Positions 4,036 to 61,265 of a stretch of 61,265 nt of DNA are shown in pieces. Every line of letters begins with the position of its first letter. The first letter of the stretch is position 1. The notes below the pieces were generated by a model. The model saw only the letters and a list, made by a program, of their open reading frames with translations. It was not told where the DNA came from and did not search any database. Made by a program: the position numbers and the translations under genes. The stretch is from a virus: the IMG/VR virus record IMGVR_UViG_3300045988_080771, positions 1-61,265 of that record. One strand, 5' to 3'.

Positions 4036-4055
4036 ATATTTCATAAGGAGTTATC

Positions 4056-5208: not shown

Positions 5209-5235
5209 GTATAAACCCTCTACAAAGGAGAAAAT

Positions 5236-5592: not shown

Positions 5593-5610
5593 TTTATTAC
5601 TGAAAGCCTC

Positions 5611-5644
5611 AAAGGCCTATGGAAACATAGGCCTTTAGCTTTTG
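5611..5644 (+). terminator. intrinsic terminator, hairpin-family variant
   Basis: aaaggcctatg-gaaa-cataggccttt followed by agctttt. Confidence 0.7.
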
Positions 5645-5657
5645 CCTAGGAGATATT

Positions 5658-6407
5658 ATGGATATTCAGCATATTTTAAATGTATCAAAACACTTCGTCA
5701 AGAAGAATTCGCCAGCTATCCTAACTGGAATGGCAGTTGTTGGTGTAGTAACTGTTGCAGTATCTGCGGTAAAGGATACTCATGTTGCTGATCGTAAACT
5801 CAAGATCGCTCGTATTGAAAGTGGTCGAGAGCTTACTAAGGTCGAAACCTTAAAGACGGCAGTCCCGTGCTATATTCCGACTGGACTTAGTGTTGTCGCG
5901 ACTCTTGCCTGCATTGGTGGTGCACTCAAAGCTGGTAATTCCAAGACCGCTGCATATGCTTCGGCATATACTATGGCCCAGGAAGCAGCGAAGAACTATC
6001 GAACTCAGGTTGAACGTATACTCTCTGAAAAAGATATTGAGAAACTGAACAACGCAGTCGCGGATGATGCGATGGCCAAGAGCGATTCCAAACCGATTGT
6101 AGTCGGAAGCGGTAAGGTCCTGTGCTTCGATCAGTTCTCTGGACGATATTTCGAATCCGACATGCAGAGTCTTCGTGAGATTCAGAACGATCTGAATGAA
6201 CAATTGCTCAGTGACATGTGGGTTTCCGTTAATGAGTATTACGATAAACTCAAGCTGGAACCGATCAATGCAGGCGAAGAATTGGGCTGGAATCCTGATT
6301 ATAAGGTAAAGCTTCAGTATAGTTCCCGCTTGTCAGAAGATGGACGTCCTTGCCTGGTGGTATCATTCGATACCAGTCCATCTGCTGATTTCTATCGCAA
6401 GTACTGA
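5658..6407 (+). CDS. membrane-anchored protein (249 aa), paralog of 8463..9377
   Basis: Shared N-terminal block KKNSPAILTG(M/V)..VVG and a second hydrophobic segment. Confidence 0.75.
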   Translation: MDIQHILNVSKHFVKKNSPAILTGMAVVGVVTVAVSAVKDTHVADRKLKIARIESGRELTKVETLKTAVPCYIPTGLSVVATLACIGGALKAGNSKTAAYASAYTMAQEAAKNYRTQVERILSEKDIEKLNNAVADDAMAKSDSKPIVVGSGKVLCFDQFSGRYFESDMQSLREIQNDLNEQLLSDMWVSVNEYYDKLKLEPINAGEELGWNPDYKVKLQYSSRLSEDGRPCLVVSFDTSPSADFYRKY

Positions 6408-6408
6408 T

Positions 6409-6436
6409 TCGCGATATTTTCATCGCCCTTAATGAA
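6409..6436 (+). promoter_or_regulatory. PE-12
   Basis: tcgcgatattttcatcgcccttaatgaa; ATG at 6461. Confidence 0.6.
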
Positions 6437-17698: not shown

Positions 17699-17765
17699 TA
17701 GTGGTCATGGAAGCTACCATTGTTGGTGCCCTGGTTGTGGTAAACAAGTGAACATCACGCGATAA
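17589..17765 (+). CDS. 58-aa zinc-ribbon-like protein (below the ORF-track cutoff)
   Basis: Translated by hand: MKTKVNRTSKEVKKEAKKAMKCHCDASIVILSRVLDDSGHGSYHCWCPGCGKQVNITR*. RBS gaaagga; its stop lies inside PE-13. Confidence 0.5.
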   Translation: MKTKVNRTSKEVKKEAKKAMKCHCDASIVILSRVLDDSGHGSYHCWCPGCGKQVNITR

Positions 17766-17784
17766 AATCACGCTCTTTAATGAA
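17757..17784 (+). promoter_or_regulatory. PE-13
   Basis: acgcgataaaatcacgctctttaatgaa; ATG at 17812. Confidence 0.6.
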
Positions 17785-17811
17785 GTAAACACTACTCATT
17801 AAGGAGAAATC

Positions 17812-18021
17812 ATGAACACTATTGTCGCAATCGCACTGATTGTCATTCTCAGTATTGCACTGATCTTCACCATTGCTACCGCATGTAACATTGCGAATGA
17901 ATCCGCATATGTTAAAACGGAATTGGTAAAGGTAAAGACTCTGCTAAAGACTGCATATGCTGTTAGTGACGATGCAACCAAAAATATTCTCGATAAAATC
18001 GATGAATTAAGCGTTTGCTGA
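17812..18021 (+). CDS. small membrane protein (69 aa)
   Basis: TM helix IVAIALIVILSIALIFTIA; RBS taaggag. Confidence 0.7.
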   Translation: MNTIVAIALIVILSIALIFTIATACNIANESAYVKTELVKVKTLLKTAYAVSDDATKNILDKIDELSVC

Positions 18022-18025
18022 ACGA

Positions 18026-18066
18026 CTTAAAGGTCTATGAAAAAATCATAGGCCTTTAAGTCTTTC
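18026..18066 (+). terminator. intrinsic terminator
   Basis: 15-bp stem cttaaaggtctatga-aaaaa-tcataggcctttaag followed by tctttct. Confidence 0.7.
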
Positions 18067-18067
18067 T

Positions 18068-18095
18068 CCGCGAATAAAACATCTCCCTTAATGAA
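18068..18095 (+). promoter_or_regulatory. PE-14
   Basis: ccgcgaataaaacatctcccttaatgaa; ATG at 18123. Confidence 0.6.
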
Positions 18096-18122: not shown

Positions 18123-18305
18123 ATGGTATCATTGATTGTAACGATCATCACCGTAGGCCTGGTCCTAATCGGTTATGAGATCGGTGACATATTCTTTGGA
18201 TCAATCCGTCGTAAGATTGAGATGAAGAATGAAGCCGAGAGTCATATCCTTAGGGACCAGTACGGAATCTATAATATCGATGACGTATTCAAGCCCAAAC
18301 GCTGA
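18123..18305 (+). CDS. small membrane protein (60 aa)
   Basis: The second in-frame ATG has proper spacing from AAGGAG; TM helix VSLIVTIITVGLVLIGY. Confidence 0.65.
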   Translation: MVSLIVTIITVGLVLIGYEIGDIFFGSIRRKIEMKNEAESHILRDQYGIYNIDDVFKPKR

Positions 18306-18322
18306 ATAGGTTTATTTTTATT

Positions 18323-18354
18323 AGACCCTGTGGAAACACAGGGTTTATATTTTT
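18323..18354 (+). terminator. intrinsic terminator, hairpin-family variant
   Basis: agaccctgtg-gaaa-cacagggttt followed by atattttt. Confidence 0.75.
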
Positions 18355-18367
18355 GAAAGGAATTAAA

Positions 18368-22370: not shown

Positions 22371-22916
22371 ATGGTAATGTGGTCTATAATTCCCCAACAT
22401 CCGAAATACACAGCATCGAATACTGGCGAGGTTTGCCGAATAAGCACTGGACATATTCTTAAGAAGTTCAAGATGCAAAATGGTTATAATTATGTCTGCA
22501 TCGATCGAAAGAATATTTTAGTCGCTCGTCTCGTCTGTGCTGCATTTATGGAAGACTTTGATATCGAAGACAGCTACATTGTCGTCCATCATATTCATGA
22601 TAAGAGCGATGATTCACTCGATAATCTTGAAATCATGGAACGTAGTGAGTTGCTTGATCTTGTTGAGCCATATTTCGCCGATGGTCTTCCGCGAGGTCGC
22701 GCCAGTCTGAAATACGGAACGAAATACGATAAGAAAGCTGTGCCGATTCAATGCATTGAAACTGGTCACATATTTCCATCCGCTAAACATGCTGCCAAAT
22801 GGCTCGAGCAAATCGGATGTGGATATTTGTGTGCCGGTTATGTTTATCGCATTGCAAAAGATAGCAAGGAAGGAGTTCGAGGTTACCATTTTCGACGTTT
22901 GGATAAACGCGAATAA
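22371..22916 (+). CDS. HNH homing endonuclease (HNH_3/NUMOD4-like)
   Basis: N-terminal W..IP..P.Y..S..G.V, HNH core VVHHIHDKSDDSLDNLEIM, and a C-terminal IENR-like segment IQCIETGHIFPSAKHAAKWL. Confidence 0.75.
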   Translation: MVMWSIIPQHPKYTASNTGEVCRISTGHILKKFKMQNGYNYVCIDRKNILVARLVCAAFMEDFDIEDSYIVVHHIHDKSDDSLDNLEIMERSELLDLVEPYFADGLPRGRASLKYGTKYDKKAVPIQCIETGHIFPSAKHAAKWLEQIGCGYLCAGYVYRIAKDSKEGVRGYHFRRLDKRE

Positions 22917-22934
22917 AACATGGCCCTTAATGAA
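22907..22934 (+). promoter_or_regulatory. PE-15 (overlaps the stop codon of the HNH gene)
   Basis: acgcgaataaaacatggcccttaatgaa; ATG at 22957. Confidence 0.6.
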
Positions 22935-24243: not shown

Positions 24244-24272
24244 TCGCGAAAAAAACATGGGCTTTAATAGAA
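24244..24272 (+). promoter_or_regulatory. PE-16 (97-nt leader before the RNAP-like gene)
   Basis: tcgcgaaaaaaacatgggctttaatagaa. Confidence 0.55.
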
Positions 24273-24368: not shown

Positions 24369-27344
24369 ATGAACTTTGTTGGCCAACAAGAAACTTATTC
24401 CGACGATTTGAACGAAGTAGACAATTATATCGAGCACTACGGAACTCCTCATTCTGGAGCCGTCCCGCATTCTGGACGATATCCTTGGGGTTCTGGTGAT
24501 TCCCGTTTCAAAGATGCGGGAAGTTTTCTAAGCCGATATCATGAACTACGAAAGTCTGGTATGTCTGATGCTCAAGCTGCGAAAGCTTTAGGTATGACTA
24601 CCAATCAGATTCGTGCATATCGTTCCATCGCTACCAATCAAGAGCGCGCCGCACTTTCTGCTAAAGCATATAAGCTTAAGGAACGTGGTTGGGGTGCTAC
24701 CGCTATTGCTAAAAAGCTTTCCGAAAGTGAAGGGCGAGAGATCAATGAGTCGACCGTCCGTTCTCTTTTGGATCCTTCTCGTAAAGCTCGAATGGATTCA
24801 ACTACTCAACTTGCGGAGTCTCTTAAGAAGACAATCCCTGAAGGTGGAGCAGTTTCAATCGGTAAGGGTGACGAGCTATTTCTTGGTGTAACCGCGGACA
24901 AATTGAAAGTCGCTACGACTATGCTTGAGTCCGAAGGATATCAAGTAAAGAATCTTTACGTTGATCAGCTTGGAATGAAGGGCAAGAAAGTTACTGTTAA
25001 AGTGCTTGCTGCCCCTGGAGCAAAGCTGGACGATCTTTATAACAATCCAGACAAAGTTGCATTCATTGCTAAGTCAGAACCAATAGCTGAAGCTAATGAT
25101 CTTGGATTAAAACCACCAGTTGCTGTAAAGTCATCTCGTGTCGCCGTTCGTTATGGAGATAAAGGCGGTGTCGAGAAAGATGGCACTATGGAGATTAATC
25201 CTCAAGCTGTTGATCTTCGTCTTTCACCTAAAGGTGTTGATAAGAAATACGCCCAGGTTCGAATCTCTGTTGATGGCACCCATTACTTAAAGGGTATGGC
25301 CGTTTATGGTGATCCTAAATCATTCCCTCCTGGTGTTGACATCATATTTAACACTAACAAAAATAGCAGCACTCCAAAAATGGATGTGTTCAAGAAGATG
25401 AAGGATGATCCCGATAATCCATTCGGTGCAACCGTACGACAGTATGATTACATTGATCCAAAGACTGGAAAGACTAAACAATCTCCAATCAATCTTGTGA
25501 ATGATGAAGGTACTTGGTCTGAATGGAGTCGTAATCTTCCTTCTCAGGTTCTTTCGAAGCAGTCTGAGGCATTGGCTAAACGACAGCTTGGATGGGCTTA
25601 CGATCGTTACAAAATGGAATATGATGAGATTAATTCTCTGACTAATCCAGTGGTTAAACGAAAGTTGATGAAAGAGTTCTCTGATTCATGCGATTCTGCA
25701 GCAGTTCATATGAAGGCGGCTGCAATGCCTAGGCAGAGTACTCGAGTAATTCTTCCTATTCCTTCTTTGAAGGATAATGAGATCTATGCTCCTCATCTTA
25801 ACAATGGTGAGAAGGTAGTTCTTGTTCGTTTTCCACATGGCGGTCGTTTCGAAATACCTGAACTGATTGTTAATAACAACAATCGAGAAGGCAAACGAGT
25901 TCTTGGAACAAACCCTAAGGATGCTGTTGGAATCAATGCCCATGTTGCTGGAATCCTTTCAGGTGCGGATTTCGATGGTGATACTGTTCTCGTAATTCCA
26001 AATAATCGAGGAGAGTTTAAACGAAGAGATCCATTGCCTGGTCTTAAGAACTTCAATCCTAGTGAGGCATATCCAAAGTATGAAGGTATGAAAGTTATAT
26101 CCTCTCGAGAGAAACAGCTTGAGATGGGTAAAGTTTCGAACCTTATTACTGATATGACTCTCAAGGGTGCAGGATGGGATGAGATTGAACGTGCTGTCAA
26201 ACATTCTATGGTCGTGATCGATTCTGAAAAGCATGAGTTGAACTACAAACAATCTGAGAAGGACTATGGAATCCGTGCTTTGAAAGCTAAGTGGCAAGGT
26301 GGTTCTAATAAAGGTGCCTCCACTCTTATTTCGAAAGCAACATCCGATGCCCGTATCAATGAAAGAAAGCTCCGCTCTGCTAAAGATGGTGGTCCTATTG
26401 ATCCAAAGACCGGTAAGTATGTTTGGGAAGAGACTGGGTCTCATTATGAAGTGACCAAGTCCCATACAATTAAACCTTCTGATATTAAGAATGGTAAAGT
26501 AACCGACCCAGTCTCTGGTAAAAAGGTCCCCGTCTTTTCTGAGGAGACCACCACTAAGTCTGGTCGTAAGAAAGTTTCTTACTACTATGAGGCCCTTGAT
26601 TATAAAGGTGACCCCGTCTTTGATAAAAAGACCGGGGCTCGTAAACGTGGAACTAAGGCCACCACCTTTGATGATAAAGGTAACCCAATAGTTGAAACTA
26701 AATACCGCCAGGTTAAGGTACCTAAGATGTCCCTTGTGGACGATGCCCTATCTCTTTCTTCAGGTACGGGCATGGAAGAAATTTATGGTACCCATGCTAA
26801 TAAATTAAAAGCCCTTGGTAATGAAGCCCGTAAGACCTATGTCAATACAGAGGTCTTTAAGGTGGACTCAAAAGCACGTACCCAATACGCAAGCGAGGTT
26901 GCTTCTCTCAATGCTAAGCTTAATACTGCATTGAAGAACATGCCTTTGGAAAGGCGTGCGCAAATGCTTGCTAATCAACAAGTAAAAGCTCGTCAATATG
27001 ACAATCCAAATCTGGATGAAGACCAGCTTAAGCGGTTGAAACAGCAGGCCCTCCATGGTGCTCGATTGAAGGTCGGTGCCGATAAGAAGTCAGTCACAAT
27101 ACACATTACTGATGGTGAATGGAAAGCGATTCAAGATCGTGCAATTTCATCTAGCAAACTGGAAGAGATTCTAAGGTTCGCGGATGAAGATGAAGTAAAG
27201 CAACTCGCATTGCCTCGTCAAGGAGTAAAGGTTCCGCCTTACATCATTTCAAAGGCAAAAACCTTGATCAATAAAGGTTATACTGTGGCAGAAGTAGCTG
27301 ATGCAGTGGGCGTTAGTGTGTCGACTCTTGAGAAAAGTCTTTAG
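24369..27344 (+). CDS. putative single-polypeptide double-psi-beta-barrel RNA polymerase (YonO / RdRP-like) with N- and C-terminal HTH segments
   Basis: aa 261-270 RYGDKGGVEK resembles beta RHGNKGVISK. aa 484-543 VLVRFPHGGRFEI..INAHVAGILSGADFDGDTVLVIP resembles beta-prime [37 protein letters not shown]. HTH-like segments at aa 65-134 and 962-991. Confidence 0.6.
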   Translation: MNFVGQQETYSDDLNEVDNYIEHYGTPHSGAVPHSGRYPWGSGDSRFKDAGSFLSRYHELRKSGMSDAQAAKALGMTTNQIRAYRSIATNQERAALSAKAYKLKERGWGATAIAKKLSESEGREINESTVRSLLDPSRKARMDSTTQLAESLKKTIPEGGAVSIGKGDELFLGVTADKLKVATTMLESEGYQVKNLYVDQLGMKGKKVTVKVLAAPGAKLDDLYNNPDKVAFIAKSEPIAEANDLGLKPPVAVKSSRVAVRYGDKGGVEKDGTMEINPQAVDLRLSPKGVDKKYAQVRISVDGTHYLKGMAVYGDPKSFPPGVDIIFNTNKNSSTPKMDVFKKMKDDPDNPFGATVRQYDYIDPKTGKTKQSPINLVNDEGTWSEWSRNLPSQVLSKQSEALAKRQLGWAYDRYKMEYDEINSLTNPVVKRKLMKEFSDSCDSAAVHMKAAAMPRQSTRVILPIPSLKDNEIYAPHLNNGEKVVLVRFPHGGRFEIPELIVNNNNREGKRVLGTNPKDAVGINAHVAGILSGADFDGDTVLVIPNNRGEFKRRDPLPGLKNFNPSEAYPKYEGMKVISSREKQLEMGKVSNLITDMTLKGAGWDEIERAVKHSMVVIDSEKHELNYKQSEKDYGIRALKAKWQGGSNKGASTLISKATSDARINERKLRSAKDGGPIDPKTGKYVWEETGSHYEVTKSHTIKPSDIKNGKVTDPVSGKKVPVFSEETTTKSGRKKVSYYYEALDYKGDPVFDKKTGARKRGTKATTFDDKGNPIVETKYRQVKVPKMSLVDDALSLSSGTGMEEIYGTHANKLKALGNEARKTYVNTEVFKVDSKARTQYASEVASLNAKLNTALKNMPLERRAQMLANQQVKARQYDNPNLDEDQLKRLKQQALHGARLKVGADKKSVTIHITDGEWKAIQDRAISSSKLEEILRFADEDEVKQLALPRQGVKVPPYIISKAKTLINKGYTVAEVADAVGVSVSTLEKSL

Positions 27345-27361: not shown

Positions 27362-27709
27362 ATGTCTGTTGAATACATGCTTACTACTATTGATAATCCT
27401 TTTAATCCTTTTATTGATTTCGATCGTTGGTATGGCTTTGACATTACTCAAGGTCATTACACAAGTGAATACATCGCTCGAATCGCTGTTGACAGTGCAC
27501 TATTGTCTGATGAAGAACGTTCTGAGGAATACAATCGTGCTATTCAATGGATCTTAGACAATGATGTTTTAGGATTGTATGTTCGTATTACGAAAGACAA
27601 TGCTGATTCTATTATTGCTAAGAACCTGAAACATTCTGAAGATTCTTTAGATAATTCTTTAGATAATTCTTTGGATAATTCTTTGGATAATTCTTTGGAT
27701 AATTCTTGA
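27362..27709 (+). CDS. hypothetical protein (115 aa) whose C-terminus is encoded by the 12-bp tandem repeat
   Basis: ORF track; tail DSLDNSLDNSLDNSLDNSLDNS. Confidence 0.65.
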   Translation: MSVEYMLTTIDNPFNPFIDFDRWYGFDITQGHYTSEYIARIAVDSALLSDEERSEEYNRAIQWILDNDVLGLYVRITKDNADSIIAKNLKHSEDSLDNSLDNSLDNSLDNSLDNS

Positions 27710-27733
27710 GATAATTCTTTTGAATCTTTGAAT
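27638..27733. repeat. tandem 12-bp repeat, about 7-8 units (GATAATTCTTTR)
   Basis: Read directly: gataattcttta / gataattctttg x3 / gataattcttga / gataattctttt, plus degenerate flanking units. Confidence 0.9.
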
Positions 27734-27737
27734 GTTG

Positions 27738-27898
27738 TATTTGAATCTCAAATGAATTGAATTGTTTGCATTCATTCGATTGCTATTATTGATTCGCTTC
27801 AAATCAATGTCCGTTTATTTCTCCTTAATTTATTGGTTAATAGATTGATAATAGTAATCGATTGTGTGCATTCAATTCGATTCATTTGAATTCAAATC
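27738..27898. repeat. imperfect inverted repeat with ~45-bp arms (27738-27782 and 27856-27898)
   Basis: tatttgaatctcaaatgaattgaattgtttgcattcattcgattg compared with the reverse complement of aatcgattgtgtgcattcaattcgattcatttgaattcaaatc. Confidence 0.7.
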
Positions 27899-27985
27899 TT
27901 AATTCATTTAATTTAAATTTAAAATATTTTTAATTTAAAATAATTTAAATACTTTAAATATAAATATAATATGGATTGAATATAA

Positions 27986-28056
27986 ACCCTCCCCGGGGGT
28001 CCGCGAAAATATACCCCCTCCCGCATCGCCGCCCTCCTCAAAAAATCTCCGCGGGG
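27986..28056. other. isolated GC/C-run-rich tract within an AT-rich intergenic region (candidate cos/pac or protein-binding site)
   Basis: ccctccccgggggtccgcgaaaatataccccctcccgcatcgccgccctcctcaaaaaatctccgcgggg, immediately after about 70 bp of near-pure A/T (27905-27975). Confidence 0.4.
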
Positions 28057-28279
28057 ATATTTTGGGAGACCTTTTTAGTGGTCCAGGGCGAATATGTTAT
28101 ATTTTAGAGTGGTAAGCCTGTCTGTCAGTGGGTTTGGTAAACAAAACTGCGCAGACATGACCCTTTAAACTAGGCATAAAGGGGCGCAAACTCCTTTCGA
28201 AGCCATTAAAACTCATTGATGGACAGCCTTATCTCTCTAAAAGCCTAGTGATCTATACTTGAAATGGAGTCGATTTGTC

Positions 28280-28639
28280 ATGCCTAGACCTAAACGGACT
28301 AATGAACCGGTGCTCCCACCGCTTCAACCGGCTACCACACCGGAAGAACGAGAGAAACAGCTCATAAATCTGGCCGAGAATGAGAGCGAACGTCTAATGC
28401 GAGAGCATAGAGCTCCTGCTTCACTCCTCATTCATTATCTTAAACTTGGTTGCACTCGTGAACAGGTCGAGTTGGAGAAGATTCGACAGGAAACCGAGCT
28501 TACCAAGGCGAAGGTAAAGACAACCGAGACGGCTGAGCAACTCCAGAGCATGACTCGTGATGCGATGGATGCTTTCCGTGCATATTCTGGAAACATGAAT
28601 GGAGATGATGCAGATGCTTCTGACGGATTCCGTGATTAG
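28280..28639 (+). CDS. hypothetical protein (119 aa); possible small terminase subunit by position
   Basis: First gene after the large intergenic region; ATG with RBS ggag; basic N-terminus and a coiled-coil. No family assignment possible. Confidence 0.3.
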   Translation: MPRPKRTNEPVLPPLQPATTPEEREKQLINLAENESERLMREHRAPASLLIHYLKLGCTREQVELEKIRQETELTKAKVKTTETAEQLQSMTRDAMDAFRAYSGNMNGDDADASDGFRD

Positions 28640-29165
28640 AAAGAAAGCAAAAGAAAATGGCCTCATCTATCCATATGATGAGACGCAGCTTCAACCTTGT
28701 AGCTATGATGTCACACTAAGCTCTTCGATAATTCGATATGTTGGAAGCGGAATCATTGACGCATCGTCCAGAACACTAGATAATACTCTTGAATACTTCA
28801 AGTTCAACATGAACGATGAAGGTTATATTCTTGAGCCTGGAGAATTCATTTTAGGCAGTACAAATGAATCTCTATCATTGCCAAATCGATTGGCCGCTCG
28901 ATACGAAGGTAAATCTTCGATGGGTCGAATCGGTCTTGCTTCTCACATTACTGCTGGTTTTATCGATCCCGGATTCCGTGGAACGATTACTCTCGAAATC
29001 AAGAATGAAAATAATCATCAAATCCGGATTCGTCCGGGTATGAAGATTGGTCAATTCTGTTTCTTCGAGACATCCCCTGTCGAGAGACCCTATGGCTCAG
29101 AGGAACTGGGCTCGCATTATCAAGGACAGATCGGCACTACGCCATCTGCTATCCAGTATGCCTAA
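28614..29165 (+). CDS. dcd: dCTP deaminase / dUTPase-superfamily enzyme
   Basis: N-terminus MLLTDSVI..., QPCSYDVTL, GKSSMGRIGL, GFIDPGFRGTITLEIKN. Start chosen at the ATG 9 nt after GGAG. Confidence 0.75.
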   Translation: MLLTDSVIRKKAKENGLIYPYDETQLQPCSYDVTLSSSIIRYVGSGIIDASSRTLDNTLEYFKFNMNDEGYILEPGEFILGSTNESLSLPNRLAARYEGKSSMGRIGLASHITAGFIDPGFRGTITLEIKNENNHQIRIRPGMKIGQFCFFETSPVERPYGSEELGSHYQGQIGTTPSAIQYA

Positions 29166-29568
29166 AATTCGTACTTACACTGATTTGATTCAAATTCCAA
29201 CCTTCGAAGAACGATTCAAATACCTTAAATTGAATGGTACAGTAGGACAAACTACTTTTGGATTCGAACGATACATGAATCAACGGTTCTATTCTTCAGT
29301 CGAATGGAAGCATGTAAGAGATATAGTCATTGCAAGAGATAATGGCTGCGATTTGGCATGTTCTGATCATGAGATTTATGGGAAAGTGATGGTCCATCAT
29401 ATATGTCCACTGACTCCAGAAGCATTAGAAAATAGTGACATAACTGTGTTGGATCCGAACTTTCTTATTTCATGTTCCATGAAGACCCACAATGCGATTC
29501 ACTTTGGCGACCTATCTCAGGTACGTTCATTTGTCGAACGAAAACCTGGGGATACAAAACTATGGTGA
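29158..29568 (+). CDS. HNH endonuclease (terminase-associated type)
   Basis: CDLAC...HHICP...N...THNAIH; lies just upstream of the large terminase. Confidence 0.7.
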   Translation: MPKIRTYTDLIQIPTFEERFKYLKLNGTVGQTTFGFERYMNQRFYSSVEWKHVRDIVIARDNGCDLACSDHEIYGKVMVHHICPLTPEALENSDITVLDPNFLISCSMKTHNAIHFGDLSQVRSFVERKPGDTKLW

Positions 29569-29603: not shown

Positions 29604-29945
29604 ATGAATAGCATTCTTGAAGACATAAAACAAATGCTAAATCTTGAAAAAGATTACACGCCATTTGATACTGATGTCCAGATCTATATTAATTCGGCAT
29701 TCGGAAATCTTTATCAGTTGGGTGTTCTGACTGATAAGTATTCGATTACCGGATATGACGAAACTTGGGACGATGTTCCACTTGTTCGAAAGCAAGCGCA
29801 AGAGATCAAAGTCTATATTTATCTCTATACTCGTTTGCGTTTCGATCCTCCTGCCAACAGCTTTGTTATTGAGGCTATCGAAAAACAGATTAGCGAAGCT
29901 GAATGGCGATTGAATGTTGAAGCTGAAGGAGCTTTTGAAAGTTAG
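29604..29945 (+). CDS. putative head-tail connector (gp6-like) protein
   Basis: Size, plus an N-terminal pattern LEDIKQMLNLEKDYTPFD typical of this family. Recalled, not searched. Confidence 0.35.
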   Translation: MNSILEDIKQMLNLEKDYTPFDTDVQIYINSAFGNLYQLGVLTDKYSITGYDETWDDVPLVRKQAQEIKVYIYLYTRLRFDPPANSFVIEAIEKQISEAEWRLNVEAEGAFES

Positions 29946-29953: not shown

Positions 29954-31705
29954 ATGGCTTTGTCTAATACCGCGACCCCACGATATTATGGGGAATTCCG
30001 CCAAAAAGTACTCAATGGTGAGATACCGGTATGCAAAGAGATTTCAATGCAGATGAATCTTATCGATGATCTCATTGCAAATCCAGGTGTTTATTACGAT
30101 GAAGATGCAGTTGAGGGTTTTATTCAGTTCTGTGAAACCGAACTGACATTGACTGATGGTTCACCGCTTACGCTTCTCGATTCGTTTAAGCTGTGGGCCG
30201 AAGATGTATATGGATGGTATTATTTCGTGGAACGATCGGTTCTAGTGCCGAATGTTGGACGCCCTGGAAGTCATTACGAGACGCGACGGGTTAAAACTAG
30301 ACTTCGTGAGAAGCAGTATTTGATTGTCGCTCGTGGTGCTGCCAAATCTATGTATTCATCTTGTCATCAGGCATATGGCCTTACTATTGACACATCAACA
30401 TCTGATAATATTACAGTCGCTCCGACCATGAAACAGGCCGAAGAGATTATGTCTCCGATCCGAACTGCATTGGTTCGTCATCGAGGACCATTATTTAAGT
30501 TCTTAACTGATACCAATCTACCCAGTTTGGATGGTAAACCAAATCAACCTAAATTGGGTTCCACAAAGAAAGGCATCGAGAACTTTATGACTGGATCGAT
30601 CGTCGAGATCCGACCCATGTCTATTGATAAACTGCAGGGTGCCCGTCCAAAACGTGCAACCGTTGACGAATGGTTGTCTGGTGATATCCGAGAGGATGTT
30701 ATCGGTGCAATCGAACAGGGTGCATCGAAGCTCGGAAATGGAAACTATCTAATTATCGCCACCTCATCTGAAGGAACTGTTCGTAATAGTGTTGGTGATA
30801 ATATCAAGATGGAGCTTATGAAAATACTGAAGGGCGAGTATGTAAATCCGCATGTCTCAATTTGGTATTATAAGCTCGACGATATTTCCGAAGTAAATGA
30901 TCCCAATATGTGGATCAAAGCAAATCCCAATATTGGTTTGACGATCTCTTATGAGACATATCAGTTAGATGTTGAGCGTGCAGAACATGCTCCGGCAACC
31001 AGAAATGATATTCTCGCAAAACGATTTGGAATACCAATGGAGGGTTACACATACTTCTTCACATATGAAGAAACTCTTCCTCACAGAAAGCAAAGTTTCT
31101 GGGGTATGCCATGTTCTCTTGGTGCTGATTTATCACAAGGCGATGATTTCTGCGCATTCACGTTTCTGTTTCCTCTTCGTGGTGAGCAATTCGGCATCAA
31201 GACCATCAACTATATTTCTGAATACACTCTTTCGAAACTTCCTGGTGAAGCAGTTCGACATAAGTATGATGAATTTATAAATGAGGGTTCTCTTCGAATC
31301 ATGCCCGGCACCGTTCTTGATATGATGCAGGTATACGATGATTTGGAGAAGTATATCGCTGATGCTGATTACGATGTTCGAAGTTTTGGATATGATCCAT
31401 ATAATGCTCGAGATTTCGTTCAACGATGGGAAACCGAGAATGGCCCATTTGGAGTGACTAAGGTTATTCAAGGTGCAAAGACCGAATCCGTTCCTCTTGG
31501 TGAATTAAAAAAGCTATCCGAAGAACGTCGTCTCATATTCGACGAATCACTTATGCAGTTTGCAATGGGTAATTGTATCACCCTTGAAGATACAAATGGA
31601 AATCGTAAACTCTATAAAGCTCGTCGTGAGGATAAAATTGATGCCGTTGCAGCATTAATGGATGCATTTGTTGCTTATAAGCTTAATAGAGATGCATTTG
31701 AGTAA
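29954..31705 (+). CDS. terL: terminase large subunit
   Basis: 583 aa; ATPase motifs VARGAAKS and ATVDEW; nuclease half with conserved acidic residues; position upstream of the portal. Confidence 0.8.
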   Translation: MALSNTATPRYYGEFRQKVLNGEIPVCKEISMQMNLIDDLIANPGVYYDEDAVEGFIQFCETELTLTDGSPLTLLDSFKLWAEDVYGWYYFVERSVLVPNVGRPGSHYETRRVKTRLREKQYLIVARGAAKSMYSSCHQAYGLTIDTSTSDNITVAPTMKQAEEIMSPIRTALVRHRGPLFKFLTDTNLPSLDGKPNQPKLGSTKKGIENFMTGSIVEIRPMSIDKLQGARPKRATVDEWLSGDIREDVIGAIEQGASKLGNGNYLIIATSSEGTVRNSVGDNIKMELMKILKGEYVNPHVSIWYYKLDDISEVNDPNMWIKANPNIGLTISYETYQLDVERAEHAPATRNDILAKRFGIPMEGYTYFFTYEETLPHRKQSFWGMPCSLGADLSQGDDFCAFTFLFPLRGEQFGIKTINYISEYTLSKLPGEAVRHKYDEFINEGSLRIMPGTVLDMMQVYDDLEKYIADADYDVRSFGYDPYNARDFVQRWETENGPFGVTKVIQGAKTESVPLGELKKLSEERRLIFDESLMQFAMGNCITLEDTNGNRKLYKARREDKIDAVAALMDAFVAYKLNRDAFE

Positions 31706-31713: not shown

Positions 31714-32346
31714 ATGGTATTCAAATCTCAATATATTCAAAATGATATTTCCGAAGATGATGATTCAATTGAGCATTATGGTGTTCTCGGAATGAAATGG
31801 GGTGTTCGTAGATCACTCGATAAGTCTGGACGAAAATCTTATCGTAAAGACGCCAAAGCAAAACGTGTTCAGCTTCGAAAGACTGCTGCTTCTGAGAAGT
31901 ATATGAAGCGTAATTATGAAAAAGACGCTGACGCTGCTGGTCAGGTTCGAGCTGCTGCAAAAGCTCGAGGCAAAGCTGAAACAAAAATTTTTGGGCGTGA
32001 TGAAGCTATTCGAAGCACTCAAAAAGATTTAGATCGGGCTGTAAAGAATCGTGAATCCTCTCGAGAAGCCTATCTTCGATCCGAACGCATCTATAAGAAT
32101 AACGAATCCAAATTTAACTCTATGGCTGAGACCATGAAAGCTAAGTACGGTAAAGATAGCGTTAAGAATTATAGCACTAAGCAGATCGCTAAAGGTGAGG
32201 AATGGACCAATAATGTTATCAAATTCGGTTTGAATATTACTGATCTTCCATTGCTTGGTAATAAGTACAATGGAAAGTATATTACTAATGAAGTCGTGAA
32301 TGACCGAATGAAGAACCTTGACAAGACTACTTCGAAACGTTATTAA
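31714..32346 (+). CDS. basic protein (210 aa) with the conserved N-terminal leader D-x-I-E-H-Y-G...GMKWGVR
   Basis: DDSIEHYGVLGMKWGVRR at aa 16-33. Confidence 0.7.
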   Translation: MVFKSQYIQNDISEDDDSIEHYGVLGMKWGVRRSLDKSGRKSYRKDAKAKRVQLRKTAASEKYMKRNYEKDADAAGQVRAAAKARGKAETKIFGRDEAIRSTQKDLDRAVKNRESSREAYLRSERIYKNNESKFNSMAETMKAKYGKDSVKNYSTKQIAKGEEWTNNVIKFGLNITDLPLLGNKYNGKYITNEVVNDRMKNLDKTTSKRY

Positions 32347-32355
32347 GGATAAAAT

Positions 32356-32862
32356 ATGACTGATTTCATTGACATGGATCAGCCAGCTGAAGACTATATT
32401 GCTCATCATGGTGTAAAAGGCATGAAGTGGGGCGTACGTAAATCTCGTCCTACATCAGGTCGTACTTCCAAGGCAAAACGATCATTTATTACAATTAATA
32501 TCAATAAAGGATCTGCTGCCAAGAAACAAGAAGTCACTAAGAAGGCTGGCATCCTTAAGCGAGCTGTTGAAGTCAGAAAAAAGTCGAAGCCTGAAAACAT
32601 TCATGACATTTCTGATGAAGATCTTAATGCTCGAATCAATCGGCTTCAACGTGAACAACAGTATAAACAGCTAATGCAACAAAATGCTGCAAATATCCAA
32701 CCATCTAATCAATCCAAAAGTTATGTTAATCAGTTTAAACAACAAATGGTTAGTTCTTTGATTAGCGGTGTTGCTGGTGGTGTTGGTGATTTTGCCAAGG
32801 CTGCCGTGAAATATCAGTTGTCTTCGCGTACCGGTATTCCTACCGGTAAGGACAAGAAGTAA
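32356..32862 (+). CDS. basic protein (168 aa) with the same N-terminal leader
   Basis: EDYIAHHGVKGMKWGVRK at aa 12-29. Confidence 0.7.
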   Translation: MTDFIDMDQPAEDYIAHHGVKGMKWGVRKSRPTSGRTSKAKRSFITININKGSAAKKQEVTKKAGILKRAVEVRKKSKPENIHDISDEDLNARINRLQREQQYKQLMQQNAANIQPSNQSKSYVNQFKQQMVSSLISGVAGGVGDFAKAAVKYQLSSRTGIPTGKDKK

Positions 32863-32879
32863 GATTAGGAGGTGCAAAT

Positions 32880-34229
32880 GTGTCGAATTTACCGGACCGA
32901 TTAATTAATGCGTGGAATGCTTTCCGTAAGCTTCCGACTGTTTATAATCCATTATTGGGTCCTGGTACTGGCTATCGTCCTGATCGAAATTATCTTTCGC
33001 CTCGAAGTGAACGTTCGATGATATCGGCAATGTATAATCGTATTGCGATTGATGTTGCTGCAGTTAACATCGAACATGTTCGAGTCGATAAAGAGGATCA
33101 TTATGAGGAAACGATATCTAGCGGATTGAATGATTGCCTGAAATACAGTGCAAACATCGATCAGTCTGGTCGTGAATTCGTAATGGATATTGTCCTCACT
33201 ATGATGGATGAAGGTGTTGCAGCCGTTGTTCCTGTCGATCTGGATGTAAGTCCTGTTGAGAATAACAGCTATGACATCAAAACCATGCGAGTCGGAAAGA
33301 TTCGAGAATGGTTCCCAGATTCTGTACGAGTTGATCTATATAATGATCGAACCGGTCGACGCGAGGAAATTACAGTTCCAAAGAGTATGACTGCGATCAT
33401 TCAGAATCCGCTCTATGCAGTAATGAATGAACCAAATTCAACACTTCAGCGTCTTATTCATAAGCTGGCACTGCTTGATGTTATCGATGAGCAATCCGGT
33501 TCTGGTAAACTGGATCTTATTATTCAGTTACCATATGTTATTAAGACTGAAGCCCGAAGACAACAGGCCGAAGAACGTCGAAAGCAGATCGAACAGCAGT
33601 TGAAAGATTCCAAATACGGAATCGCATACACTGATGGTACTGAACATATTACTCAGTTGAATCGATCTGTGGAGAACAATCTTCTCGATCAGGTTAAATA
33701 CCTTGAAACCAAATTATATGGTCAGATGGGTGTTTCTGAGAATGTTCTCAATGGAACGGCAAATGAAGAAGAGATGCTCAATTATTATAATCGAACTCTC
33801 GAACCGATTCTGTCATCCATTACCGACAATATGACGAGAACCTTTCTTACCAAAACGGCGAGAACTCAAGGTCAGCGTGTCAAGTTCTTCCGTGATCCAT
33901 TCCGTTTAATCGAATCCTCCACTCTTGCTGAGTTGGCGGATAAATTTACTCGAAATGAAATTATGTCTTCGAATGAATTCCGTGCCGTTATTGGTCTTCA
34001 CAAGTCTGATGATCCTAAGGCTGATCAACTTATCAATTCCAACCTGAATCAGGCAAGTGATCAAAATAGTAATTATACTGCAGACCCATCAGATTCTGGA
34101 ATGTATGAAGAAGGCGACGAGCCTGCGGATGACCAGATCTCTGAGGATGAATATAACGAAGCCAATAGCCAACTCGATGAACTCGATAAGCTATTGGACG
34201 AGCTGACTAAGCAGGTGCAAGGTGCCTGA
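32880..34229 (+). CDS. portal protein
   Basis: 449 aa; GTG start 8 nt after AGGAGG; position between terminase and capsid; acidic C-terminus. Confidence 0.6.
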   Translation: MSNLPDRLINAWNAFRKLPTVYNPLLGPGTGYRPDRNYLSPRSERSMISAMYNRIAIDVAAVNIEHVRVDKEDHYEETISSGLNDCLKYSANIDQSGREFVMDIVLTMMDEGVAAVVPVDLDVSPVENNSYDIKTMRVGKIREWFPDSVRVDLYNDRTGRREEITVPKSMTAIIQNPLYAVMNEPNSTLQRLIHKLALLDVIDEQSGSGKLDLIIQLPYVIKTEARRQQAEERRKQIEQQLKDSKYGIAYTDGTEHITQLNRSVENNLLDQVKYLETKLYGQMGVSENVLNGTANEEEMLNYYNRTLEPILSSITDNMTRTFLTKTARTQGQRVKFFRDPFRLIESSTLAELADKFTRNEIMSSNEFRAVIGLHKSDDPKADQLINSNLNQASDQNSNYTADPSDSGMYEEGDEPADDQISEDEYNEANSQLDELDKLLDELTKQVQGA

Positions 34230-35016
34230 CAGTATTGCGCATTACGCTAGTCCATACTATGATCCTGTCAAAGCTCATGAGTATTACGAGCGAACCAAAA
34301 AGCTCAAGGGCCGAAAGACCGGAACGTCTTTGAACGATGCCGGTAAGGAAGCCAAGACTTATGTGCGGAATAGGATCAATGCCAAACGAGATCAGGACCT
34401 TAAGAATGCTGAATCTCAGTCCAAGAAAAGGACCGAGGAACGTAAGAAGAGCGCTGAACGTGAAACTTATGACAACATTCGAAAGGAATCTGAGGAGCTT
34501 GGTAAAAAACTTGATGCATTGATCTCAATGACTTCGAAGCTTGACGGACCATCACTTCGTGCAAACAAGAAACGTATACTCGCTGTTGTTAATTCATTGG
34601 CAGCAAAGAATAAACAGTCTCGAACGAAATTGATTTCTTTGTATAAGACCAATAAGACTAAGATTAACACAGAGGAACGTGAGAAACTTACAGCTGAGAA
34701 GAAGAAGATTCGTTCTGATGCAACGAATACTTATAAATCAGAGGTTGAGAAGATTCAAGGCGATTCTGAGTTTCAGTCCACCAAGAAGACCAAATCCGCT
34801 TCTAAGAAGAAATCAAATGTTTCTTCCGGAAAGTCAAGTGGTACTTCAAGGAAGTCAAGCGGTACTTCAAAGAAATCCTCACGCAGAACTTCGAAGAAGG
34901 TCACTAATAAAGCATATAATGCTCGTATGGAGGCTGGTCATAAGAAGGCTGCTGAGAATTATGCTCGTTGGCAGAAAGAACGTGCTGCTTTAAAAAATAA
35001 CAATAAGAAGAAGTAA
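34222..35016 (+). CDS. highly basic Lys/Ser-rich protein (264 aa; scaffold or internal DNA-binding protein candidate)
   Basis: GTG start overlapping the portal stop; N-terminus PDSIAHYASPYYDP; repeats SSGKSSGTSRKSSGTSKKSS. Confidence 0.55.
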   Translation: MPDSIAHYASPYYDPVKAHEYYERTKKLKGRKTGTSLNDAGKEAKTYVRNRINAKRDQDLKNAESQSKKRTEERKKSAERETYDNIRKESEELGKKLDALISMTSKLDGPSLRANKKRILAVVNSLAAKNKQSRTKLISLYKTNKTKINTEEREKLTAEKKKIRSDATNTYKSEVEKIQGDSEFQSTKKTKSASKKKSNVSSGKSSGTSRKSSGTSKKSSRRTSKKVTNKAYNARMEAGHKKAAENYARWQKERAALKNNNKKK

Positions 35017-35018: not shown

Positions 35019-37004
35019 ATGCCAAAACCTGATTTTAGTGGCTATGCCACTCGAAATAATATTCAGTGTGCTGATGGCAAGATCATTGCCAGGAATGCAT
35101 TCATTGATCAGGATGGAACCCGGGTTCCTTTGGTCTATATGCACGACCATAATGATCCAATGAATATCTTGGGGCACGCTGATCTTGAAAATCGTGAAGA
35201 TGGTGTCTATTGCTATGGGTATCTCAACAATACCCCGAATGCTCAGGTTATGCGTGAGCAGATTGAGCATGGTGATGTCAATAGTCTTTCCATCTTTGCA
35301 AATCATTTGAAGCACAATGCAAATGTGATTACCCATGGTGAGATCAAGGAAGTGAGTCTTGTTCTTGCTGGCGCTAATCCTGGTGCTTACATTGAAAATG
35401 TCTCCATTCAGCATGGTGACTATTCTGATGAATTCGATGAAGCTATCATCTATTCGGATGATGATCTCGATTCTGAGGAAGAAGTCGAAGACGAAACCGC
35501 CGATGAAGAAGAGTTTGAACATGATGACACTTCTGACGATTCGGAGGAGTCCGATGATTCCAAAGATCAGACTGTTGCTGAAGTTCTTGACTCTATGAAT
35601 CAGGAACAGCAGTCGGTCGTCTTCGCTCTTATCGATATGGCTAAGAAGGGTATTAAACCTTCTGATACTGTCGAGCATTCCGATGACGGTGGAAAGACCG
35701 TCGGTGAAGTATTCGATAGCATGACCGATCTGCAGCGTAACGTTGCTTATGCTCTTATCTCTAAAGCTATCGATGGCGATTCTTCTGATTCGGACGATCA
35801 GACGGACGCTCAAAATGAGAAGAATTCGTCCGATGAAGCAAAACATTCTGACTTTGAAGGAGCAGATGATATGCATACTAATGTATTCGAAGGTACTAAC
35901 GCCAATGACGAGGTGGACTACACCACTCTGAGCCATGCTGATATGGCCGAAATGATTAAGGACGCTGAGCATGTCGGCTCTATGCGTGCCTATTTCAAGA
36001 ATATGACTGATCCGGATACTGGTGAGGTCACTCTTGCCCATGATGATACCCATATCTATGGTATCCAGAATATTGACGTTCTTTTCCCGGATGCCAAGGC
36101 AATCCGAAATACTCCGGATTTCTATAAGCGTCGCACTGAGTGGGTGAACGGGGTCCTTAACGGTACTACCCATGTTCCGTTCTCTCGTATCAAGTCGATG
36201 TATGCTGATATTACCAAGGATGAGGCTCGTGCAAAGGGTTATACCCTCGACCGTAATAAGAACAATCGTAAGACTGAGGAAGTCTTCAATGTTCTGAAGC
36301 GTACTACCGAACCGCAGACCGTCTATAAGAAGCAGAAGCTCGATCGTGATGATATCATTGATATTACCGATTTCGATGTGGTTGCTTGGCTTAAGGTCGA
36401 AATGCGTGTCATGTTCGATGAGGAAATTGCCCGTGCAATCCTCATTGGTGACGGTCGTGATTCTTCTTCTGTGGATAAGATCCGTACTGATCGCATTCGT
36501 CCTATTGCATTTGATGATGATCTCTATACCATCAAGAAGACCCTTAGCAAGAAGTTCGATCTGACTGGCGACATTCAGACTCGTACCGCTAAGGCGCTCG
36601 AGCTTGTTGATGCCGTCACCGAGGCTCAGGTGGATTACCAGGGCTCTGGAACTCCGACTCTGTATGCCGCTCCGAAGATGATCGCAGCTATGCTGACTTG
36701 CCGCGATACTCTTAACCATCGTCTGTGGAGGACCCGTGCCGATCTGGCAGCTGAGCTGAATGTCTCCAACATTGTCGATGTCCCGGTCATGGAAACCGCT
36801 AAGGATTCTGATGGTAATCCGCTCCTCGGTATCATCGTGAATCTTCGTGATTACACTGTCGGTGCTGATAAGGGTGGTTCGATTTCGATGTTCGATGATT
36901 TCGATATTGATTTCAACCAGCAGGTATATCTGATGGAATCTCGTGCTTCGGGTGCTCTTACTTATCCGAAGTCTGCGATTGCGCTGTTCTCCCCAAAAGC
37001 GTGA
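35019..37004 (+). CDS. fusion of an HK97-type prohead protease (S78), an acidic linker and an HK97-fold major capsid protein
   Basis: N-terminal ~125 aa is S78-like (PLVYMHDHNDP..., SLSIFAN, EVSLVLAGANPGAYI). aa ~130-290 is D/E/S-rich. C-terminal ~360 aa is capsid-like (KQKLDRDDIIDITDFDVVAWLKVEMR..ILIGDGR). Confidence 0.7.
   Translation: MPKPDFSGYATRNNIQCADGKIIARNAFIDQDGTRVPLVYMHDHNDPMNILGHADLENREDGVYCYGYLNNTPNAQVMREQIEHGDVNSLSIFANHLKHNANVITHGEIKEVSLVLAGANPGAYIENVSIQHGDYSDEFDEAIIYSDDDLDSEEEVEDETADEEEFEHDDTSDDSEESDDSKDQTVAEVLDSMNQEQQSVVFALIDMAKKGIKPSDTVEHSDDGGKTVGEVFDSMTDLQRNVAYALISKAIDGDSSDSDDQTDAQNEKNSSDEAKHSDFEGADDMHTNVFEGTNANDEVDYTTLSHADMAEMIKDAEHVGSMRAYFKNMTDPDTGEVTLAHDDTHIYGIQNIDVLFPDAKAIRNTPDFYKRRTEWVNGVLNGTTHVPFSRIKSMYADITKDEARAKGYTLDRNKNNRKTEEVFNVLKRTTEPQTVYKKQKLDRDDIIDITDFDVVAWLKVEMRVMFDEEIARAILIGDGRDSSSVDKIRTDRIRPIAFDDDLYTIKKTLSKKFDLTGDIQTRTAKALELVDAVTEAQVDYQGSGTPTLYAAPKMIAAMLTCRDTLNHRLWRTRADLAAELNVSNIVDVPVMETAKDSDGNPLLGIIVNLRDYTVGADKGGSISMFDDFDIDFNQQVYLMESRASGALTYPKSAIALFSPKA
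36992..36998 (+). promoter_or_regulatory. candidate -1 programmed frameshift heptamer C_CCA_AAA
   Basis: Zero-frame codons are tcC CCA AAA gcg tga. A -1 slip reads ccc aaa agc gtg acg..., which is the frame of ORF 37001..37318. Confidence 0.45.
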
Positions 37005-60441: not shown

Positions 60442-60463
60442 TCTGTTGATTCCTACAGTCATT

Positions 60464-60500
60464 AAGAGCTCGTGATAAAATCATGGGCTCTTATTTTTTT
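60464..60500 (+). terminator. intrinsic terminator (AGAGCTCRTGA family)
   Basis: aagagctcgtga-taaaa-tcatgggctctt followed by a T8 run. Confidence 0.8.
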
Positions 60501-60502
60501 CT

Positions 60503-60530
60503 TCGCGTTAAAATCATAGCTTATAATGAA
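60503..60530 (+). promoter_or_regulatory. PE-18 (drives the tRNA-like RNA)
   Basis: tcgcgttaaaatcatagcttataatgaa. Confidence 0.55.
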
Positions 60531-61100: not shown

Positions 61101-61115
61101 TCATTTTCAACCAAT

Positions 61116-61160
61116 AAAGAACTCGTGACAAAATCATGGGTTCTTTATTTTTTTTTTTAT
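61116..61160 (+). terminator. intrinsic terminator (AGAGCTCRTGA family)
   Basis: aaagaactcgtga-caaaa-tcatgggttcttt followed by a+T11; the T-run is the same sequence as positions 1-12. Confidence 0.8.
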
Positions 61161-61265
61161 GCCTCGCGAAAGAAACATGGTTTTTAATGAAAAAGTAAAC
61201 TACTATAAAAGGAGTTATTATGACTTGTAATCTTGACACTGGACATGATTTTATCGAAGTTCAGA
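61147..61265. repeat. second copy of the terminal overlap (contains the PE-1 duplicate at 61164-61191 and the first 46 nt of the gene at 74)
   Basis: Identical to 1-119. Confidence 0.95.

Follow-up and report, generated by a model that had tools for sequence, protein, structure and literature searches.

A short leader links DUF7211 head-module proteins to a two-barrel RNA polymerase candidate in one siphovirus lineage and may mark proteins for the virion

The DNA considered here is the whole of a 61,265-nucleotide (nt) stretch of IMG/VR virus record IMGVR_UViG_3300045988_080771 (positions 1 to 61,265, hereafter the window), and the element in question is a short leader peptide, Pfam family DUF7211 and its variants, that recurs near the N-termini of several of its proteins. 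The long genes of the window lie on the + strand without exception, and the gene for a candidate RNA polymerase (RNAP) stands directly upstream of the packaging and head genes in the same orientation (Table 1). Three small genes flank the portal gene, as the initial annotation of this DNA had described. Their products had been called strongly basic, a description that the isoelectric points (pI) in Table 1 bear out; that of the RNAP candidate is 9.4.

Table 1 Coordinates of leader stretches, genes and repeated elements in the window. Open reading frames (ORFs) are named in the text by their first position; TerL, terminase large subunit; aa, amino acids; PE, a repeated promoter-like element.
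Feature	Position (nt)	Strand	Match or remark
Two-barrel RNAP candidate, 991 aa	24369..27344	+	phrog_4291
RNAP-type leader DNYIEHYGTPHSGAVPHSGRYPWGSG	24420-24497 (aa 18-43 of ORF 24369)	+	
Leader protein 1, 210 aa, pI 9.9, net charge +19	31714..32346	+	Pfam PF23847
Canonical DUF7211 leader of ORF 31714, DDSIEHYGVLGMKWGVRR	31756-31815 (aa 15-34)	+	PF23847
Leader protein 2, 168 aa, pI 10.2	32356..32862	+	Pfam PF23847
Canonical DUF7211 leader of ORF 32356, EDYIAHHGVKGMKWGVRK	32383-32451 (aa 10-32)	+	PF23847
Basic protein, 264 aa, pI 10.2	34222..35016	+	phrog_11413, E 2.3e-21; no Pfam match
Leader-like stretch of ORF 34222, PDSIAHYASPYYDP		+	only first half of leader shared
TerL	29954..31705	+	Pfam TerL_nuclease and TerL_ATPase
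Portal protein	32880..34229	+	Pfam Phage_portal, E 3.4e-19; phrog_12
Fused prohead protease (S78), acidic linker and HK97-type capsid protein	35019..37004	+	Pfam Peptidase_S78 and Phage_capsid
Small gene	27362-27709		homolog of phage 1706 orf76
Gene-free gap, 550 nt	27710-28258		
dCTP deaminase	28599-29165		
173-aa ORF	29047-29568		no Pfam match
Connector	29604-29945		
PE copy 100 nt upstream of RNAP ORF	24245..24269	+	
PE copies in small-gene region across contig junction (60.1-6.4 kb)	19-6434	+	
PE copies in replication region	17758-18093 (17.8-18.1 kb) and 22908-22932 (22.9 kb)	+	
TATAAT variants of PE element	60156, 60502, 60676		
Hairpin plus T-run	2005-2065, 2320-2380, 3423-3483, 5616-5648, 18299-18359		
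Further hairpin plus T-run	309-351, 18026-18068, 60461-60503, 61114-61156		

Four leader stretches were located in the window, each in the first 25 residues of a + strand ORF and each where the initial annotation had placed it. When the 67 ORFs of the window (17,878 aa) were scanned with the pattern [DEN]x[ILVM][AE]H[YHFW], four matches were obtained against 0.21 expected, all of them in the first 25 residues. Upon shuffling, 0 of 2000 trials reached four matches and 0 of 2000 had at least two matches within the first 25 aa. Note that the pattern was derived post hoc from the finding itself, and independent tests carry more weight. DUF7211 (PF23847) is a 25-residue family of unknown function with a gathering cut-off of 27 bits, which both ORF 31714 (41.5 bits, E 8.5e-11) and ORF 32356 (47.9 bits, E 8.5e-13) pass. 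In the same Pfam scan at E<=0.1, DUF7211 was matched by neither the RNAP nor ORF 34222. These two fall below the Pfam membership rule, and their leaders are best described, from sequence comparison, as related variants of DUF7211 rather than as Pfam members. The literature searched contained no mention of DUF7211, and its sole GMKWG match was unrelated. In the ORF 32356 protein the DUF7211 leader is followed by a basic linker and then by a conserved helix (SDxELxxRIxRLxxExxY), and the C-terminus is hydrophobic; R96, E100 and L106 are invariant in the family alignment. The AlphaFold2 model of the protein has a predicted local distance difference test score (pLDDT) below 55 for leader residues 1-37 and of 75-94 for helix 87-113.

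The RNAP leader has the form D-x-[LI]-x-H-Y-G-x-x-R-x-S-G-R-Y-P-W-G-S-G. Among the 120 best homologs of the RNAP, H-x-G...SGRY-x-[WYF]-G-x-G is present in 117, in 114 of them within the first 35 aa; in the remaining three carriers (P0063, P0103 and P0110) it lies behind an N-terminal 2H phosphoesterase domain. Together with the DUF7211 family itself, these homologs indicate that the leader is conserved, a point on which the initial annotation had made its proposal depend. The residue two positions before the leader His is L in 90 of the RNAP homologs and I in 14, as in DUF7211. In an alignment of 22 sequences H23, G25 and S35-G43 are invariant, which few other columns of the protein are. Residues 1-50 of the AlphaFold2 model have pLDDT values of 28-39 and no secondary structure. 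Profile alignment (hhalign) of RNAP N-termini with DUF7211 gave a probability of 93.9% (E 1.6e-7, 17 columns), although the second halves of the two leaders are unlike, being GMKWGVR in DUF7211 and R-x-SGRYPWGSG in the RNAP. A few canonical leaders run on as ...KWG[KV]R[HN]GPPYPLG[GS]G (locus L016 12154-13041, L149 at about 7570 and L141 at about 12804). The ...RHGPPYPLGGG continuation of two of them could be an intermediate towards the RNAP form.

These comparisons bear on the simplest alternative, that the leader has no signal function, having been inherited within a fast-evolving paralog family, and that the likeness of the RNAP and ORF 34222 is due to chance. We consider this highly improbable. 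It is true that the RNAP and ORF 34222 matches span just 12-17 columns and that Pfam calls neither protein, but the leader is nearly invariant while the bodies behind it diverge beyond recognition, and it is kept in almost all RNAP homologs, where position -2 is occupied by L or I just as in DUF7211. Chance is also at odds with the shuffling result and the hhalign E value, and the rare extended leaders would bridge the gap to the RNAP form.

The N-terminus of ORF 34222 (PDSIAHYASPYYDPVKAHEYYERTKKLKG, nt 34225-34311) carries only the first half of the leader. N-termini of 45 distinct homologs keep D/N-x-[LI]-A-H-Y-A-S-P-Y-Y-D-P-V-K-A-H-E-Y-Y, with the leader His in 93% and the Tyr in 97%; the first leader half stands in register at the N-terminus of this family and GMKWG is absent. 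A 25-sequence profile of the family gave a weak match to DUF7211 (probability 27%, E 6.6e-4), an earlier five-sequence profile gave no signal (3.7%), and comparison of the family profile with the RNAP leader gave a probability of 13%. The ORF 34222 N-terminus is probably a relative of the leader, albeit an unproven one. The initial annotation had assigned one leader to all four proteins, in a diverged form to ORF 34222. This assignment stands for ORFs 31714 and 32356 and, as a variant, for the RNAP; for ORF 34222 it is weak statistically and extends to D-x-[LI]-A-H-Y, the first half, alone.

ORF 24369 matches phrog_4291, 'RNA-dependent RNA polymerase', with 1110 bits. It has helix-turn-helix domains at both ends. 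The metal-binding DxDGD loop that two-barrel polymerases carry in a double-psi beta-barrel is present as GADFDGD (aa 532-538) and does not vary among 22 homologs. These features make it a candidate two-barrel RNA polymerase, QDE-1/YonO-like, of the YonO/QDE-1/crAss gp66 superfamily. Using Foldseek with the AlphaFold2 model (mean pLDDT 75), QDE-1 (5fsw_B) was the only significant PDB match (E 1.9e-5, probability 1.00), with a TM-score of just 0.21 over 593 columns; the next PDB match was Pol II Rpb1 (E 0.14). A structure search of BFVD returned nothing beyond other 'RdRP'-labelled siphovirus proteins. In the accessible part of Koert et al. (10.1101/842583), crAss/YonO-type motifs are noted in this putative-RNAP family, which is described there as a signature of a supercluster of Streptomyces BI, Arthrobacter, Gordonia and Rhodococcus phages plus Lactococcus 1706-like and Faecalibacterium phages; neither the RNAP N-terminus nor a virion location is mentioned in that part.

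The leader is confined to one siphovirus lineage, which comprises Lactococcus 1706-like, Streptomyces, Arthrobacter, Gordonia and Rhodococcus phages and their gut relatives, and which has in common the terminase, the portal, the fused protease-capsid protein and the two-barrel RNAP. Of 50,697 phage records, 183 contain the leader and 250 the RNAP, and the genera are the same; a diverged Lactococcus leader was missed by the short tblastn query and recovered by a hidden Markov model. An RNAP-based scan of viral contigs gave 80 loci, 23 of which have at least 5 kb downstream. Canonical leader ORFs (one to six each) are present in 21 of these 23 and a diverged copy in the 22nd. A leader-based scan gave 80 other loci, and these contain a window-type TerL (E<1e-230) in 78 cases, the portal in 61 and the protease-capsid fusion in 53, the absences falling in short loci. 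The RNAP was found in 15 of the 18 leader-selected loci that have a full 10-kb upstream flank, and one of the three loci lacking it is ReqiPepy6, in which the RNAP gene lies at the other genome end. Where TerL is followed by the portal and then the capsid gene (53 loci, 156 leader copies), 152 copies precede TerL or fall into the interval from TerL to portal, all of them co-oriented, and 127 of the 156 begin no more than 40 aa from an upstream stop codon. Genomes have from one to eight copies; in ReqiPepy6, seven of the eight leader genes are consecutive between TerL and portal. In one locus (L169 9962-10900) a leader protein is encoded outside the TerL-portal block, just upstream of a 2767-aa tape-measure gene.

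The peptide is kept across phages of Actinomycetota and Bacillota, whose hosts range from about 33% to more than 60% G+C. A shared RNA or DNA element as the cause of the conservation was considered and rejected, given that the peptide persists both in low-G+C Lactococcus phages and in high-G+C Streptomyces and Rhodococcus phages. Cornuault et al. (PMC5883640) analysed gut virome samples and reported a member of the lineage, prophage Oengus, in up to 40% of them.

Labels in the records of cultured relatives bear on the location of these proteins. In the GenBank record of Lactococcus phage 1706 (EU081845), ORF7, which has two DUF7211 copies (Pfam E 6.9e-11), and ORF75, the RNAP homolog, are both labelled 'structural protein'. 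ORF75 and the window RNAP align from end to end at 39% identity, and the alignment takes in the leader (DDSLQHYGTKRHSGRYPWGSG). In the ReqiPepy6 record the RNAP homolog of that phage, gp106, is referred to '1706_gp75, structural protein', and a leader protein to '1706_gp07, structural protein'. The ORF75 gene is remote from the structural genes, and no homolog of it was known in 2008; its label therefore most likely stems from virion mass spectrometry. A literature search for proteomics of related phages returned nothing relevant.

The wider family indicates what the leader is attached to. A profile search of a 1.84-billion-protein library gave 39,567 cluster representatives with the leader at E<=1e-3. 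The best matches are polyproteins of 300-1500 aa with two to five leaders spaced about 150-350 aa apart, the first usually at the N-terminus, and every leader copy heads a module of the size of the stand-alone proteins, an arrangement that fits a processing or targeting element. The logo of 362 internal copies reads [ED][DE][FY]-L-[EA]-H-[YHF]-G-[VI]-[KL]-G-[MQ]-[KR]-W-G-[VI]-R-[RK], its core H, G, G, W and G being present at 98-100%. The commonest module body, which includes that of ORF 32356, is the basic linker, helix and hydrophobic tail described above. Other bodies are a GNAT acetyltransferase, a 2H/LigT phosphoesterase, a papain-fold glutamine-deamidase toxin domain and a CW_7 repeat. 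A Pfam scan of 40 polyproteins found several DUF7211 copies in all 40, GNAT in four, 2H in four and Gln_amidase in two. With the RNAP and many small basic proteins added, the survey of diverse C-terminal cargos proposed in the initial annotation thus came out positive. Several modules with effector domains, encoded in the head module in the manner of polyvalent proteins, occur in the relatives; in the window the modules are separate genes.

The nature of these bodies could suggest that the leader acts after ejection, or otherwise in the infected cell, by docking to a single host or phage target, for instance the membrane, a chaperone, the cell wall, the host polymerase or a DNA end. That the leader genes lie in the head module would then be incidental. 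The effector-like enzymes and toxin fold, the many bodies that end in hydrophobic helices and the CW_7 cell-wall-binding repeat of one polyprotein would all be in keeping with such a role, and a disordered leader suits peptide docking of any kind. We nevertheless regard a post-ejection function as unlikely, since the leader is almost unchanged across phages of Actinomycetota and Bacillota, where the constant partners are the phage TerL, portal and capsid, and since its genes lie in the late structural block and homologs are labelled virion proteins.

The fused protease-capsid protein provides a possible partner. Its linker (aa 136-320, nt 35424-35978) has a pI of 4.05, with 60 D+E against 10 K+R, and may offer a docking surface for the basic leader proteins. 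In 18 homologs KH[SA]D, MxHNVF[ED] and L[ST]H[AS][DE] are conserved in or just after this linker; the window fusion has KHSD, MHTNVFE and LSHAD. Upstream of internal leaders a His-Ser dipeptide occurs 5-25 residues away in 31% of cases, against 3% of control windows, and the nearest upstream His peaks at -10 to -12. No cleavage motif at a fixed position was found upstream of internal leaders, only this His-Ser/Asp enrichment at variable distance. The H-[SA]-[DE]-type motifs in the linker and upstream of leaders may be maturation cleavage sites. It might be argued from this that the leader is only a recognition or junction element of the prohead protease and that its proteins reach the head by another route or are not packaged. 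The presence of a leader at every polyprotein module start, the His-Ser enrichment and the similar motifs in the linker would be explained. However, most leaders head separate ORFs in which no cut is needed, the invariant H-G-G-W-G core exceeds typical prohead-protease sites by far in length and strictness, and in three RNAP homologs the leader abuts the 2H domain without a spacer. Moreover, the His-Ser lies upstream, so the leader would remain on the mature module. A role in proteolysis alone therefore seems improbable to us.

The same protein raises the question of assembly factors. A separate scaffold gene is absent from the lineage (Klyczek et al. 2017, PMC5513430), the leader genes lie beside the portal and protease-capsid genes, a location typical of scaffolds, and their products are complementary in charge to the acidic linker. 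The leader proteins could then be scaffolds or chaperones of the portal that exit the head ahead of DNA packaging or in its course, the resemblance of the RNAP reflecting recruitment or convergence. We think this very unlikely, because one to eight copies per genome with non-homologous bodies that include enzymes are unlike a scaffold and because 1706 ORF7 is labelled as a structural protein of the mature virion.

In our assessment these four alternatives fit the data less well than does a docking peptide, and we think it somewhat more likely than not that the DUF7211 leader is a short unfolded peptide of this kind, by which proteins in one siphovirus lineage are marked to enter the virion. 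A leader that is the best-conserved part of its protein and yet is predicted to be disordered in both AlphaFold2 models (RNAP and ORF 32356) shows the marks typical of a peptide with a binding partner in trans. The combination of basic cargo (pI 9.4-10.2) with an acidic linker that is the only scaffold-like element of the lineage favors binding to the procapsid interior. A short, conserved, disordered segment on unrelated bodies, encoded in the late block and associated with one head type, fits a docking peptide that loads cargo into the procapsid. The tagged proteins would be made late, and the leader, aided by the basic region behind it, would bind inside the assembling procapsid. Its likeliest partner would be the acidic scaffold-like linker or the inner face of the protease-capsid fusion, with the portal as the alternative. 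In relatives with polyproteins the prohead protease would separate the modules. The cargo would stay in the head with the DNA and then be ejected into the host, where the RNAP would transcribe phage genes at once and other cargo would act on host functions. The binding partner, the cleavage, the ejection and the role of the RNAP in early transcription are steps that we infer. The combined reading of the leader as a virion-cargo tag and of the RNAP as a packaged enzyme is supported indirectly but substantially.

Several observations weigh against this reading. Two small proteins of 1706, orf62 (L089 29052-29330) and orf71 (L089 33658-34011), are labelled 'structural protein' although encoded in a non-structural region, and no leader was found in either. 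The label thus neither requires a leader nor proves specific packaging and could include contaminants. The packaged-RNAP proposal of the initial annotation gains from the label on ORF75, a gain that the same label on these leaderless proteins limits. The part of the RNAP leader that hhalign aligned to DUF7211 is the first half only (an acidic spacer and D-x-L-x-H-Y-G-[VI]), and the RNAP leader is not called by Pfam. One locus (L010) has the RNAP and no leader ORF in the 10 kb downstream. In Tanis gp12 (L085 5478-7043) and Pepy6 gp013 (L086 10681-12276), as in the three RNAP homologs mentioned above, the leader is internal, right behind a 2H domain; in Tanis gp12 and Pepy6 gp013 it then precedes a Gly/Ser-rich tail. 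Hydrophobic C-terminal helices occur in several leader proteins, and Pepy6 gp020 is annotated as a membrane protein, making action at the cell membrane possible. Of the earlier proposal of a capsid-targeting or processing tag, the conservation of the leader, the diversity of the bodies and its place at the head of polyprotein modules speak in favor, whereas its occasional internal position and the weak link to ORF 34222 do not.

A broader version of the docking-peptide reading can be put forward tentatively. DUF7211 might be a portable capsid-loading peptide of heads built from fused protease-capsid proteins of the HK97 type, with every carrier packed and injected and a cargo range running from histone-like basic proteins and toxins to a 110-kDa two-barrel RNAP, such that this large, abundant lineage starts infection with a virion-delivered RNAP. 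We hold this joint claim to be possible and less secure than the docking peptide itself.

The initial annotation had also proposed that, if the RNAP is injected, a repeated element, PE, would supply the early promoters that it reads. The element exists: there are 16 + strand matches to CGCG-N15-TWAATR (15 of them unique) against 0.5 expected, with the consensus tTCGCGAAAaAAtCATaGccCTTAATGAAa. Many copies are directly preceded by terminators consisting of a hairpin and a T-run, such as AAACCCTATGGAAACATAGGGTTTATATTTT. These conserved hairpins stand right next to the promoter-like element that follows, so that the small early genes resemble individual units running from terminator to promoter. 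The sequence is compatible with PE being a candidate phage-specific promoter. All PE copies fall in the early and replication regions, none in the structural block at 24.3-60.1 kb, and with one copy in front of the RNAP gene this places that gene at the head of the late block.

The window ends in an exact 119-nt direct repeat (1-119 and 61147-61265), indicating that the assembly is circular and its unit 61,146 nt long. In related phages and in many metagenomic contigs the genome end lies 300-500 nt past the RNAP gene. By this comparison the gene-free gap downstream of the RNAP is probably the cos or genome-end region, and the RNAP gene is probably the penultimate gene of a linear genome. A 12-nt tandem repeat at 27630-27737 gives the product of the small gene between RNAP and gap (ORF 27362-27709) a (DNSL)n C-terminus. 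Megablast against the phage collection found no near-identical phage, only short pieces at 69-77% identity.

The RNAP family, the 'structural' labels of 1706 and the DUF7211 entry were known before; what is new, as far as the literature searched goes, is their connection. In the accessible parts of that literature neither the shared leader nor a link between RNAP identity and virion location is described. If the docking-peptide reading is correct, a function would be assigned to DUF7211, a Pfam family of about 40,000 protein clusters that so far has none, and a sequence tag would predict which phage proteins enter the host. The short peptide might also be usable for loading foreign proteins into phage heads. 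One leader on both head-module cargo and the RNAP implies, with indirect support, a virion-delivered polymerase in a large lineage of siphoviruses of Gram-positive hosts. To our knowledge N4-like, crAss-like and some jumbo phages are the only ones for which this strategy has been documented, and it would be extended to siphoviruses of Actinomycetota and Bacillota, including common human-gut phages. Cultured relatives (1706, Circum, Tanis, Scap1 and ReqiPepy6) exist for direct testing.

The nearest relatives are 1706 ORF7 and ORF75 and ReqiPepy6 gp013, gp015-gp021 and gp106, which are direct homologs with the same leader, gene positions and RNAP, and which are annotated only as 'structural protein' or hypothetical. 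Among better-known systems, the capsid-targeting sequence (CTS) of T4 is a short N-terminal peptide on unrelated cargo (IPI-III and Alt) that is packed via the scaffold core and injected with the DNA. The DUF7211 leader is likewise a short peptide on unrelated basic cargo, N-terminal in most instances (127 of 156 copies and 114 of 120 RNAP homologs, the rest being internal), and the T4 cargo includes an enzyme that acts on host transcription. In contrast, the two peptides do not resemble each other in sequence, and gp21 removes the T4 CTS by cutting at L/I-x-E, while any site in the present phages would seem to lie upstream of the leader. These phages are siphoviruses whose protease and capsid protein are fused and which lack a separate scaffold core, and their leader may be internal and repeated.

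MuF-fused polyvalent or toxin proteins reportedly occur in temperate phages. They resemble the leader proteins in being encoded in the head module by the portal gene, in joining a conserved module to variable effectors and in their presumed delivery to the host; GNAT, 2H and papain-fold toxin domains recur in both. The common element here is a peptide of about 20 residues and not a folded domain of about 100. Membership in the MuF group was rejected because no Phage_Mu_F domain was found in ORFs 31714, 32356, 34222 or 24369 (Pfam, E<=0.1), so that of the MuF analogy drawn in the initial annotation the functional likeness remains and the domain relationship does not.

N4 gp50 and crAss gp66 are phage RNAPs stored in the particle and ejected to start transcription, as is proposed here, and the crAss enzyme belongs to the same two-barrel superfamily. 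Those phages are podoviruses of Gram-negative or Bacteroidota hosts, and N4 gp50 has a T7-like single-subunit fold, whereas the present enzyme, of about 900-1000 aa with helix-turn-helix domains at both ends, belongs to long-tailed phages of Gram-positive hosts. We know of no packaging tag reported for the N4 or crAss virion RNAPs. YonO of SPbeta and QDE-1 share the DxDGD catalytic loop, and QDE-1 is the best structural match of the RNAP model. YonO is not known to be a virion protein and transcribes late genes, and in this it differs from the virion RNAP proposed here. Finally, encapsulin cargo-loading peptides are also short, disordered and sometimes repeated and dock diverse enzymes inside a shell of HK97 fold, but they have other sequences and are usually C-terminal, and encapsulins are not viruses and eject nothing.

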